Source of the DNA: Dictyostelium discoideum
Taxonomy: Eukaryota
DNA length: 64,000 nt
Reading direction: 5' to 3'
NCBI GenBank assembly: GCA_000004695.1
Contig: CM000154.2
Location: 1,632,001-1,696,000 of the forward strand
Shown: positions 30,584 through 33,349 of the stretch, piece by piece
How positions within the stretch are numbered: the stretch's first letter is position 1
Layout of the letters: each line of letters opens with the position of its first letter
Translations under genes and position numbers: made by a program
Notes under the pieces: generated by a model
Databases searched by the model: none
What the model was told of the DNA's origin: nothing
Seen by the model: only the letters and a program-made list of their open reading frames with translations

Positions 30584-33349
30584 TTATTTATTTTTATTAT
30601 TATTATTATTATTATTATTATTATTATTATTATTATTATTATTATTATTATTATTATTATTATTATTATTATTATTATTATTATTATTATTATTTTGGGG
30701 CTCAGTTGTGGTTGTTGTTTTCTTTAAATTTTCATCTAAGGATACAATATTTTCATTGATTGTGATTTGACAGAGTTCAACTATTTGGCCTTGTTTTAAT
30801 TTACTGATTAGAGGTAAATTTTGGGAGGTTACCCACATTACCATATTATATCTACTTGGAAAAACTTTAATCTGTGTTGTTTCAATTAAATCGACCAATT
30901 CTTGAATTTCTTCCTCAGTGAAATGACATTTTTCAGCCTTATGAGGGTCAGCACCACCAAAATTATCATCCTTATAGTAAATAGTTTTGGTGGTATAGTC
31001 AATATTGAAACTGTGAGTCTTGGCTTTTTCAAGTATTTTTTCAAAATGAGATCTATGTACACGCATTCCCATCATTGCACCTAATCTTGGAAGAATTACT
31101 TTAAAAGTTGGTTTAAACCCATCCTCTTTTAATCCTTGAATGACGGTGTACAAGTTTTGTAATGTTGTATTATCATTAAAATTTGATGGGAATTTAATAT
31201 TATTTGGTTGATTCTGTTGATGTTGGTTCTGTTGATTTTGGTTTTGATTTTGATTTTGATTTTGATTTTGATTTTGATTTTGATTTTGATTTTGATTTTG
31301 ATTTTGATTTTGATTTTGATTTTGATTTTGGTTTTGGTTTTGGTTTTGGTTTTGGTTTTGGTTTTGGTTTTGGTTTTGTTGATTATTTTTTTGGTTTTGA
31401 GGTGGAGATTGTTGTTGTTGCTGTTGATGATGGTGGTGTTGCTGTTGTTGTTGTTGTTGTTGTTGTTGTTGTTGTTGTTGTTGTTGTTGTTGTTGTTGTT
31501 GTTGTTGTTGTTGTTGTTGTAATTGTTGAATGTGAAGTTGTTGGATTTGTTGTTGTTGAGTTGGTGGTTGGGATAATGAGAGGAGTGAAGACAAAGAGTG
31601 AGATAAAACTCCGTTATTTAATAAAGAATTTGAAGAACTTGATGTTGAAGAGGATGGGGAAGAAGAAGAGGACAAAGAGGCGAATTGCTTTGGAGTATTT
31701 GGGGCAGATGAAGATAGTGGTGATAAATTTTTTGGAGTAATTGAGCTTCCACTTTGGAAAGTTGAAGGCATAATCAAAGTTAACGTAGCTGGTGATAATG
31801 CCGAGCCAGATGACGATGATGATAATGAAGGAGATGGTAAAGGAGAAATATTACTACTACCTCCTCTACAAAGCCCGAGTGATATTGAAAGTGGTAATGG
31901 GGGTGAAATATTTCCACTACTACTATTCATTTTATGTTGTTGTTGTTGTTGTTGGGACGTTGATTGTGGCTGTTGTTGTTGTGATGATGATGATTGATTT
32001 AATGCATTTGATGAAATATTTGCTGATGAATTTGCCAAAGATTGAGAATTTGGTGATTGTAATGGTGAATAACTTAATCCTGATGTTAAAGGATTACTTG
32101 GGGGTGGTGGATTATTTAAATTTAATTTATTAATATTATGGTGAATTTGGCTTTGTTGGCCATTATTTATAGGATTACTATTGTTTCCATAGCTACTTAA
32201 ACTATTGAAATGTAAACCTGATAAATTATTTTGATTATTTTGATTATGATGTGATAAAATTGGGCTACTCATTTGAGTAACCTTTGAACTATTATTTATT
32301 ATATTATTACCGTTGCTGTTATTATTATTATTATTATTATTATTATTATTATTATTATTATTATTATTATTATTATTATTATTATTATTATTATTACTAT
32401 TACTATATTACTATTACTATTACTATTATTATTGTTATTGTTGTTGTTATTATTGTTATTATTATTGCCATTTAAATTACAACCATTGCCGTTGTAAGAT
32501 AAATCATCGCTATATGGATTTAAACTATAATTTATATTTTCAGAAAAAAAAGAATGTGTTTCATTTGATACATTATTTATATTTTGATTTATATGATTTA
32601 TATGATTATTATTATTATTTTGGTTATTATTATTATTTTGACTATTATTATTATTATTATTATTATTATTATTATTATTATTATTATTATTATTATTATT
32701 ATTATTATTATTTTGGTTATTATTTTGGTTATTATTATTTTGATTTTGGTTGTGAAATGTTGGTACAGGGCTAACAAGAGTGGAAATTTTAATTCCTCTC
32801 ATTGTCAAAGGTTTGATAATAGGACTATCATTTGCAAATCTGTCCACTAATATGATATGTAATCCATTTGAAACTTCATGGTAATTATCAAAAATGAACT
32901 CCCATATTTTGCTTACTAATTCTGATCTATCACTTTGGAAAACTTTGGAGGAAAAAAAAAAAAAAAAAAAAAAAAGAATTGAGGAAAAAAAAATATTAGA
33001 AAAATGTTTAAAAAATAGAATTGAGGAAAAAAAAGAATATTTAAAACCTACTCTCAAAATATTGGATTCCACCAAATTGTGAAATTTCTTGTTTTATTAT
33101 ATTATAAGTTGATGGGGTAACAGAATTTCCGGCATTCGAAATATCGGAAATAATAGTAAACTGTTTTATGTAACCCAAAGAGTTGGCATAAAACTTTAAC
33201 TGATTTAAAATGTGGGATATGGAATATTGTTGGATTGGTAATGGTGTTTCAAACAAGTTCCAAAAAATTCCAACTTTACCATTTATTAAATTATTGTTAT
33301 TGTTATTTCCATTTATTATATGATTGTTTGAAAATGGATGTTTCATCAT
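30584..33349 (-). CDS. NYN-domain (MARF1/limkain-b1-type predicted RNase) protein with long poly-N/poly-Q/(NQ)n linkers and a C-terminal LOTUS/OST-HTH-like module. The model is interrupted: exons 33349-33048 and 32932-~32410 are in one frame, the C-terminal part ~32300-30584 is in another, with the break inside an (AAT)n tract.
   Basis: The NYN core is KVGIFWNLFETPLP...FTIISDISNAGNSV...HIILVDRFAND (compare MARF1 IGVFWDIENCSVP...VCDISKENKEV...HIILVH). Intron 1 is AG|GTTTTA (33047) to ttccaaag| (32933), phase 2. The downstream ORF 30584-32272 contains ...NTTLQNLYTVIQGLKEDGFKPTFKVILPRLGAMMGMRVHRSHFEKILEKAK..., which is LOTUS-like. Confidence 0.5.
31221..31380. repeat. Hexanucleotide (GATTTT/GGTTTT)n array that codes (NQ)n and flanks a (CAA)n poly-Q tract in the NYN-gene ORF on the minus strand.
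   Basis: Direct read: tgattttgattttgatttt...ggttttggttttggtttt. The minus-strand translation is QNQNQNQN. Confidence 0.85.

Follow-up and report, generated by a model that had tools for sequence, protein, structure and literature searches.

Does the minus-strand gene between 33349 and 30584 of the window (the whole stretch of 64,000 nucleotides that was analysed) encode a single protein, and what has broken its reading frame inside an (AAT)n tract? An earlier note on this sequence had proposed that two parts of one ancestral gene read the same tract as poly-Asn in two different frames, and had left the choice between a sequence error, an intron made of triplet repeat and a genuine frameshift. 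We addressed this question by comparing the locus with a second D. discoideum assembly and with related genomes.

Structure of the gene and position of the frame break

Translation of the minus strand showed the two poly-Asn frames colliding in the (AAT)n tract, just as the note had described, and the reading-frame break is genuinely present in this sequence. The features of the gene are as follows.

30584-33349, minus strand: whole gene of 2,766 nt, with the ATG at 33349 and the stop at 30586-30584
33052-33349, minus strand: exon 1, 298 nt, phase 1, in which the NYN-like domain begins (GKVGIFWNLFETPLP from 33280)
32943-33051, minus strand: intron 1, GTAGGT...CCAAAG, 109 nt, the sole real intron of the gene
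From 32942, minus strand: exon 2, one long second exon
32746-33280, minus strand: divergent NYN (LK-nuclease) domain assigned with hhalign, split by intron 1
32399-32414, minus strand: tandem duplication ATAGTAAT/ATAGTAAT, copies at 32414-32407 and 32406-32399, shifting the frame by +2
32321-32395, minus strand: pure (AAT)25 tract, translated as poly-Ile by the upstream frame, where the downstream frame and all relatives have poly-Asn
32299-32301, minus strand: premature TAA stop of the shifted frame, closing a 313-aa product with a poly-Ile tail
32282-32403, minus strand: candidate repeat intron, GTAATA...TTCAAAG, 122 nt, with an alternative donor at 32397 (rejected, see below)
30584-32272, minus strand: 562-aa ORF from ATG to stop, covering the C-terminal part; the AX2-type allele is identical here
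30719-31204, minus strand: conserved C-terminal globular module (NNIKFP...DENLKK), with a winged-helix fold and an OHA-like region

From the ATG at 33349, frame 0 reads (AAT)n as poly-Asn as far as 32407 and as poly-Ile thereafter. At the break the codons AAT AGT AAT AGT AAT AGT AAT are followed by ATA GTA ATA GTA (ATA)n, which gives the peptide NSNSNSN-IVIV-poly-Ile and then the TAA at 32301-32299; the 313-aa product therefore ends in a tail of about 30 mostly isoleucine residues, including a run of 27 Ile. The +2 frame is blocked upstream, opens exactly at the irregular unit (YSNSNNN...NSNGNNIINNSSKVTQMSSPILS) and continues into the ORF that ends at 30584. This pattern is no chance effect, since both flanks are long conserved coding sequence and form one ORF in all eight syntenic orthologues.

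Comparison with a second D. discoideum assembly

The syntenic locus of a second D. discoideum assembly (L006; GCA_054883475.1, CM142511.1) carries the gene at 13515-16272 with a called product of 882 aa. Its neighbours match those of the window (nup210, POP4, an MFS transporter and an amine oxidase), as does its single 109-nt intron, and the exon 1/intron 1 boundary agrees with the gene span minus CDS length of this second gene (109 nt). The assembly comes from PRJNA1300491 (Nanopore and Illumina), a project in which AX2-214 is the sole laboratory strain (PMC12745789), and it is probably AX2-214 itself. The window is most likely the AX4 reference assembly, given the identity of its POP4 exon with AX4 XP_636667.1 and the presence of 100-N gaps and of patches resembling low-quality Sanger sequence.

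Relative to every comparator, this gene carries eight extra nucleotides, an exact tandem duplication of ATAGTAAT at 32414-32399. The plus-strand unit 'tactatatta' does lie at 32401-32410 as the note had placed it, but the lesion exceeds the 2-nt 'at' that was taken for it. Once one ATAGTAAT copy is deleted, the 2,766-nt gene becomes 100% identical to that of the second assembly: the 2,758 nucleotides that they share, of which about 900 are microsatellite, are the same and the 8 nt are the sole difference. The ORF of this independently assembled, near-identical laboratory strain is continuous because it has one ATAGTAAT copy fewer. The junction k-mer AATAGTAATATAGTAATAGTAAT has a single occurrence in the window and is absent from all 13 loci, and the intact AX2-type sequence at the site is AGTAATAGTAATAGTAATAGTAATAATAAT.

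The 1.2 kb on either side of the duplication is free of errors relative to the second assembly, and within the 21 kb compared the duplication is the only non-homopolymer indel outside clusters of miscalls. These clusters sit 1.3 and 4 kb from the frame break. At 28240-28440 there are seven substitutions, for which the outgroups back the second assembly at 7 and the window at 0, and which change the FAD motif of the neighbouring amine oxidase from VLEARD to VLKPKD. At 33660-33960, adjoining an N gap, the outgroups back the second assembly at 33 positions and the window at 0. Over the whole 21 kb, the polarised substitutions support the second assembly at 40 positions and the window at 0, with 10 ambiguous.

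Orthologues and selection

Syntenic loci were reached through the neighbouring gene POP4. In eight genomes, the second laboratory-strain assembly and seven related genomes, a gene encoding 822-914 aa is located between POP4 and the MFS/amine-oxidase genes; the contigs of D. purpureum and P. violaceum stop 1-2 kb past POP4 and end before the orthologue region. All eight orthologues have the first intron only and a single uninterrupted ORF across the tract, which is the continuous frame in related dictyostelids that the note had suggested looking for, and none carries the duplication. For the six orthologues in which both conserved anchors spanning the tract were located, the distance between them is 195, 177, 126, 177, 207 and 351 nt, always a multiple of 3, versus 203 nt (2 mod 3) in the window. 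Intron 1 measures 93, 102, 109, 109, 114, 122 and 163 nt in orthologues, a range which indicates that its length is free of any multiple-of-3 constraint. The peptide NGNNIINNSSK, encoded by the 3' part of the tract region, is kept at the protein level out to D. firmibasis (dS about 0.55).

Between the second assembly and D. firmibasis, dN/dS is 0.045 for the N-terminal domain, 0.081 just after the break and 0.068 for the C-terminal domain, and omega lies at 0.02-0.08 for the C-terminal domain and the post-break region in the D. firmibasis comparison. These ratios show that both halves of the gene are under strong purifying selection across the clade (dN/dS 0.02-0.08).

The descent of the two halves from one ancestral gene, as the note had assumed, is borne out by the continuous ORFs and by the presence of both domains in one protein in Cavenderia, Acytostelium, a Ceratiomyxa Trinity transcript and the homologue P0060 (Pfam NYN and OHA). 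The uncharacterised proteins Cavenderia fasciculata DFA_11456 (P0055, 701 aa) and Acytostelium subglobosum SAMD00019534_064500 (P0056, 512 aa) have the same two domains, in the same order, in one polypeptide, and the C-terminal domain is 69-73% identical to theirs. They differ in their shorter low-complexity linkers and in lacking the frame break.

Word-indexed protein searches with the N- and C-terminal domains gave no match, the index evidently being without proteins of the D. discoideum group. By exact look-up, the protein collection contained neither the 313-, 844-, 846- and repaired 885-aa models, the 102-aa exon-1 read-through and the 562-aa ORF, nor the reconstructed 836-, 882- and 914-aa orthologues. 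Logan short-read contigs are present for POP4 and are fragmented at homopolymers and repeats. Literature searches returned no dictyBase identifier for the locus and no mention of it.

Domain composition of the protein

In the encoded protein, long N/Q/S-rich linkers accompany a divergent NYN domain and a C-terminal winged-helix/OHA-like domain that includes the peptide FPSNFNDNTTLQNLYTVIQGLK. The NYN label given by the note holds at the level of profile homology: the dictyostelid N-terminal domains aligned by hhalign to the NYN domains of P0057 and P0060, which are Pfam-positive (E 2e-16 and 1e-22), with a probability of 98.4% (E 4e-15, 125 columns). It does not extend to a direct Pfam match, as NYN (PF01936) gave none at E<=1 for the N-terminal domain of the window protein. 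In all five dictyostelid sequences FWN(L/I)xE replaces FWDxENC and VDR(F/Y/K/R)A replaces SGDRDF; in the window protein the FWD..ENC motif appears as FWNLFET. Since Asn stands in place of the first catalytic Asp of FWDxENC in all of these sequences, the protein is probably not an active nuclease, and the NYN-like domain is likely a non-catalytic derivative.

For the C-terminal module, the LOTUS label is compatible with the winged helix, but OST-HTH (PF12872) gave no direct Pfam match in the window protein and OHA is the better-supported label. OHA (PF14418) matched directly at 16.9 bits (E 0.0058, residues 120-158 of the 173-aa query), for a gathering score of 26.1 bits, and in P0060 it reaches 56.4 bits within the region that aligns to this module. 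AlphaFold2 modelling of the C-terminal domain reached a pLDDT of 34 from the single sequence, a workable model being obtained only from a 6-sequence alignment. A PDB sequence search with profiles of both domains gave nothing meaningful.

Proteins that combine an LK-nuclease/NYN domain with OST-HTH have been described as a conserved architecture (Anantharaman et al. 2010, PMC2848206). The window protein shares the N-terminal NYN-type domain with limkain-b1/MARF1 and its plant and protist relatives (LK-nuclease/NYN with OST-HTH(LOTUS)/OHA), and its C-terminal winged-helix module is homologous to the OHA-carrying region of P0060. Unlike proteins of this type, it is without a direct Pfam NYN or OST-HTH match, its OHA match is sub-threshold, its first catalytic Asp is Asn, and it has the long poly-N, poly-Q and (NQ)n linkers typical of Dictyostelium.

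Origin of the frame break

We consider that the 8-nt duplication most likely arose in the reference as an artefact of sequencing, assembly or cloning, because it is missing from a second, near-identical assembly and from seven related genomes. Among the explanations offered by the earlier note, that of a sequencing or assembly indel is thus the best supported, the second assembly being 8 nt shorter and in frame and error clusters lying nearby. The two apparent halves are one gene, with the intron at 33051-32943 and one long second exon, and its frame is broken by eight extra bases, a second, exact copy of ATAGTAAT placed in tandem at 32414-32399. In the organism, translation would then pass straight through (AAT)n as poly-Asn to yield about 882 aa; we infer that the true AX4 genome lacks the additional 8 nt. 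Two reads or contigs overlapping by 8 nt may have been joined end to end with the overlap left unmerged, which would yield exactly this duplication, or a clone or read error may have arisen in a low-coverage stretch close to an assembly gap. The case resembles errors of Sanger-era, AT-rich references in being an isolated microsatellite indel that breaks a conserved ORF, with N gaps and miscall clusters close by. Such errors are usually 1-nt miscalls, whereas here eight nucleotides are exactly duplicated in tandem, which suggests a faulty join, a cloning artefact or a genuine mutation. Two observations speak against an artefact: the lesion is isolated, outside any visibly poor patch, and spontaneous mutation normally includes exact tandem duplications too.

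AX2 and AX4 were derived separately in the laboratory from one parent strain, NC4, so that a mutation private to AX4 is possible. Under this reading, which we hold to be unlikely, the duplication is real and very recent in the AX3/AX4 laboratory lineage, and the truncated 313-aa protein, without the conserved C-terminal module, would comprise the NYN-like domain, a poly-Asn linker and about 30 mostly Ile residues, making the strain a natural null or hypomorph with respect to AX2. The duplication is exact and clean within otherwise perfect sequence, mutation normally produces tandem duplications, the comparison is probably with another laboratory strain (AX2-214), and the duplicated state is derived relative to all outgroups, as expected of a new mutation. 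However, the 1.8 kb past the break holds no further disabling change and not a single difference from the intact allele, so that the inactivation could be only decades old; relaxed constraint was also not seen. The genuine frameshift proposed by the note is therefore tenable as a very recent, strain-private event and not as an older one. Moreover, the remaining microsatellites of the gene are equal in both assemblies, and the duplication falls out of phase with the local 6-nt (AATAGT) and 3-nt periods, which is untypical of repeat slippage and does not favour it. The polarisable substitutions of the same 21 kb are also overwhelmingly window errors, and strong purifying selection acts on the gene throughout the clade. 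It is accordingly improbable that AX4, a reference strain in wide use, truly carries the duplication, as a natural truncation mutant of a conserved and uncharacterised NYN-like/winged-helix-OHA protein that is intact in AX2 and all wild relatives.

An unusual spliceosomal intron formed by the (AAT)n tract, also envisaged by the note, is very improbable, although it is of a length and AT content within the Dictyostelium intron range (cf. intron 1, 109 nt). Only two GT..AG pairs restore a stop-free frame, from GTAATA at 32403 or 32397 to TTCAAAG at 32282 (122 and 116 nt, phase 0; products of 844 and 846 aa), with the donor at 32404/32403 and the acceptor at 32282/32281, 9-16 nt from the sites of about 32412 and 32298 that had been proposed. 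The near-identical DNA of the second assembly is nevertheless in frame unspliced, and its gene was called with the 109-nt first intron only. The tract is read as coding in all eight orthologues and is a multiple of 3 in each relative measured, whereas the real intron varies freely over 93-163 nt; the 3' end of the putative intron encodes the conserved NGNNIINNSSK; and the donor GTAATA is without the G at +5 and the T at +6 of the four neighbouring introns checked, a small sample (GTAGGT for intron 1; GTATGT, GTAAGT and GTAAGT for three nup210 introns). Coding use of the tract in relatives, conservation of this peptide and the atypical donor effectively refute the repeat intron. We also rejected, as barely credible, a bypass of the break by programmed ribosomal frameshifting or slippage, or expression of the 562-aa ORF alone from Met 32272. 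An A/T-rich repeat is slippery in principle and this ATG sits 28 nt downstream of the premature stop, but the relatives are in frame and so have no conserved recoding site, Met 32272 lies inside the protein (KVTQMSSP) in each orthologue, and the two halves are not set apart by promoter or polyadenylation evidence.

Consequences for annotation

Should the duplication prove to be an artefact, the locus ought to be annotated in the reference as a single gene of about 882 aa; models with a 313-aa protein ending in poly-Ile, with a pair of genes or with an invented repeat intron would then be wrong. Should it be real, a conserved putative RNA-binding protein distinguishes AX4 from AX2, and this hidden genetic difference between the main two laboratory backgrounds would interest Dictyostelium laboratories modestly. 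In either case, nothing new is learned about the biology of introns, recoding or gene fission. Finally, gene models on this stretch need care because of the further reference errors, including the corrupted FAD-binding motif of the amine oxidase.

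Gene structure and frame break

The window has a G+C content of 23.4% and contains three 100-N gaps. The gene under study and two of its neighbours are arranged as follows.

Features of the window
36379-37008, minus, POP4/RNase P p29
33349, minus, start ATG of the gene
33349-33052, minus, exon 1
33280-32746, minus, NYN-like domain
33051-32943, minus, intron 1 (GTAGGT...CCAAAG), 109 nt
32942, minus, start of exon 2
28756-30346, minus, MFS transporter

The deposited sequence does contain the frame break, as the earlier note had read it in the (AAT)n tract. The exon-1 frame passes from ...AAT AGT AAT AGT AAT AGT AAT to ATA GTA ATA GTA (ATA)n, so that the peptide changes from N-S-N-S-N-S-N to IVIV and poly-Ile before a TAA at 32301-32299, giving a product of 313 aa. 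The +2 frame, closed upstream, opens exactly at the break point, reads YSNSNNN...NSNGNNIINNSSKVTQMSSPILS and continues as a 562-aa ORF ending at 30584. The irregular plus-strand unit 'tactatatta' was likewise found at 32401-32410.

Another four long microsatellites in coding sequence, (AAT)33 at 30596-30694, (CAAAAY)24 at 31235-31378, (CAA)25 at 31445-31519 and (AAT)23 at 32644-32712, have the same length in the window and in the D. discoideum assembly GCA_054883475.1 (locus L006), and vary among wild isolates and sister species, always by whole codons.

Syntenic loci and selection

The neighbouring gene POP4 was used as search query, and its orthologues led to the syntenic locus in eight genomes. 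Its exon in the window shows no difference from D. discoideum AX4 XP_636667.1, and the window is accordingly taken as a laboratory-strain assembly of D. discoideum, most likely the AX4 reference. The position of the NYN-like gene is occupied by one gene in all eight.

Called products at the syntenic loci
L006, D. discoideum GCA_054883475.1, 882 aa
L007, D. discoideum isolate, 914 aa
L008, D. discoideum isolate, 898 aa
L004, D. cf. discoideum, 836 aa
L013, D. cf. discoideum, 857 aa
L011, D. citrinum, 880 aa
L012, D. dimigraforme, 822 aa
L005, D. firmibasis, 914 aa

Gene order is kept (nup210, POP4, NYN-like gene, MFS transporter, amine oxidase). The MFS_1 transporter is called in the five D. 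discoideum/D. cf. discoideum loci and in D. citrinum; it is uncalled in D. dimigraforme and in D. firmibasis, where its neighbours lie only ~545 nt apart, which suggests that it was gained or lost in a lineage-specific way. Subtracting CDS length from gene span leaves intron 1 alone (93-163 nt) in seven of the eight loci; the 272 nt obtained by annotation for L012 probably reflect an extra annotated intron.

Word-indexed protein searches with both conserved domains returned zero matches. The D. discoideum-group orthologues are called genes on their own contigs, yet they were missed by this search and by exact look-up; the lack of matches there is therefore not evidence of absence. An exhaustive protein search gave no representative above 78% identity.

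Substitution rates were computed by the Nei-Gojobori method for the pair L006 and D. firmibasis.

dN/dS along the gene
N-terminal domain, dN/dS 0.045, dS ~0.6
250 codons directly after the break, dN/dS 0.081, dS ~0.55
C-terminal domain, dN/dS 0.068, dS ~0.4

An exhaustive phmmer search recovered five homologues of the C-terminal domain, and each of these proteins has the N-terminal domain as well.

Homologues of the C-terminal domain
P0054, EukProt protein, 648 aa
Cavenderia fasciculata DFA_11456, 701 aa
Acytostelium subglobosum protein, 512 aa
Ceratiomyxa Trinity transcript ORF, 876 aa
P0060, 585 aa

The premise that the two halves form one gene is thus upheld, both by these proteins and by the single continuous ORF in each of the eight genomes.

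An 8-nt duplication

Over the 21 kb compared, the window and L006 are substitution-free over long stretches. The gene measures 2,766 nt in the window and 2,758 nt in L006, and the two are identical save for 8 extra bases in the window, which create an exact tandem duplication, ATAGTAAT|ATAGTAAT, at 32414-32399; with one copy of ATAGTAAT removed, the window gene string equals that of L006 exactly. The window has a single instance of the junction k-mer spanning the join of the two copies, and all 13 fetched loci lack it. Measured between conserved anchors on either side, the tract spans 203 nt (2 mod 3) in the window; in the six orthologues that allowed both anchors to be located it spans 195, 177, 126, 177, 207 and 351 nt, all multiples of 3. 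In L012 and L013, which stand outside this count, exon 2 is one open frame through the tract (747 and 772 codons). The comparison with related loci that the earlier note had proposed therefore yields a continuous ORF through the tract in eight of eight.

Artefact, mutation or intron

Other parts of the window also depart from L006. In the amine oxidase gene, the first coding exon (28255-28422, minus) has seven substitutions where the outgroups (L007, L008 and L004) match L006 and none where they match the window; they include GGGLAG to GGGLTG and, in the canonical FAD-fold motif, VLEARD to VLKPKD in the window, and are almost certainly window miscalls that would corrupt the annotated protein. 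At 33660-33960, near the N gap at 34224-34323, outgroups match L006 at 33 sites and the window at none. On both sides of that 100-N gap (33660-34483) over 40 substitutions and short indels are dispersed, a pattern of doubled bases and G and C runs that looks like low-quality read ends by an assembly gap. Once these error clusters and differences in homopolymer length are set aside, a single discrepancy is left in the 21 kb, the 8-nt duplication. Many poly-A/poly-T runs differ by 1-6 nt between window and L006, e.g. at 35483, 35463, 34194, 29940, 28728 and 28230.

PRJNA1300491, which includes GCA_054883475.1, is a Nanopore plus Illumina de novo project with AX2-214 as sole laboratory strain and an N50 of 5.3 Mb (PMC12745789); L006 is most likely AX2-214. 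We consider it likely that the duplication is an artefact of the deposited sequence, absent from the organism. The suggestion of a sequencing or assembly indel is therefore favoured, given L006 without the 8 nt and the nearby errors, but the lesion is the duplication and not a 2-nt 'at'. Simple slippage would be an unnatural source, since the duplication does not fit the 3-nt or 6-nt period of the surrounding repeats; two sequences joined end to end with their 8-nt overlap unmerged would produce exactly such a duplication. A real mutation private to the AX4 lineage, rather unlikely in our view, would agree with the isolation of the lesion amid otherwise perfect sequence and with the natural occurrence of exact tandem duplications; it would have to be very recent, because the 1.8 kb downstream still equal the intact allele. 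We hold it barely conceivable that the break is bypassed by recoding, or that the C-terminal ORF is expressed independently.

That the tract is a spliced intron is highly improbable. The only frame-restoring GT..AG pairs are 32403..32282 (122 nt) and 32397..32282 (116 nt), from which the splice sites once proposed at 32412 and 32298 are off by 9 and 16 nt. The tract is coding in all eight orthologues, and the unspliced DNA is already in frame in the near-identical strain (L006); the 3' part that would be removed encodes NGNNIINNSSK, conserved as protein in D. firmibasis. Tract length is a multiple of 3 in the six orthologues measured, whereas the true intron 1 varies freely. Four introns inspected nearby (GTAGGT, GTATGT, GTAAGT, GTAAGT) all have G at +5 and T at +6, which the donor GTAATA does not. 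The practical value lies mainly in a corrected gene model and a warning of an unreliable reference stretch.

Domain architecture

The locus holds a single gene, ordinary and conserved, which combines a divergent NYN with a winged-helix/OHA-like domain and has Dictyostelium-type homopolymer linkers; proteins that join LK-nuclease/NYN to OST-HTH are a known architecture (PMC2848206). Pfam did not call NYN on the window protein; it called NYN in P0057 (2e-16) and P0060 (1e-22), and OHA in P0060 (3e-15). With hhalign, the dictyostelid N-terminal domains matched the NYN of P0057/P0060 with a probability of 98.4% (E 4e-15), which identifies the N-terminal half as a divergent NYN/LK-nuclease domain. 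In the alignment of these domains (A3), every dictyostelid sequence has FWN(L/I)xE in place of the NYN motif FWDxENC, and the SGDxDF motif is missing. Because of the FWDxENC replacement, the domain is probably non-catalytic, and the dictyostelid family resembles a nuclease-dead derivative of NYN that purifying selection still strongly constrains (omega ~0.04).
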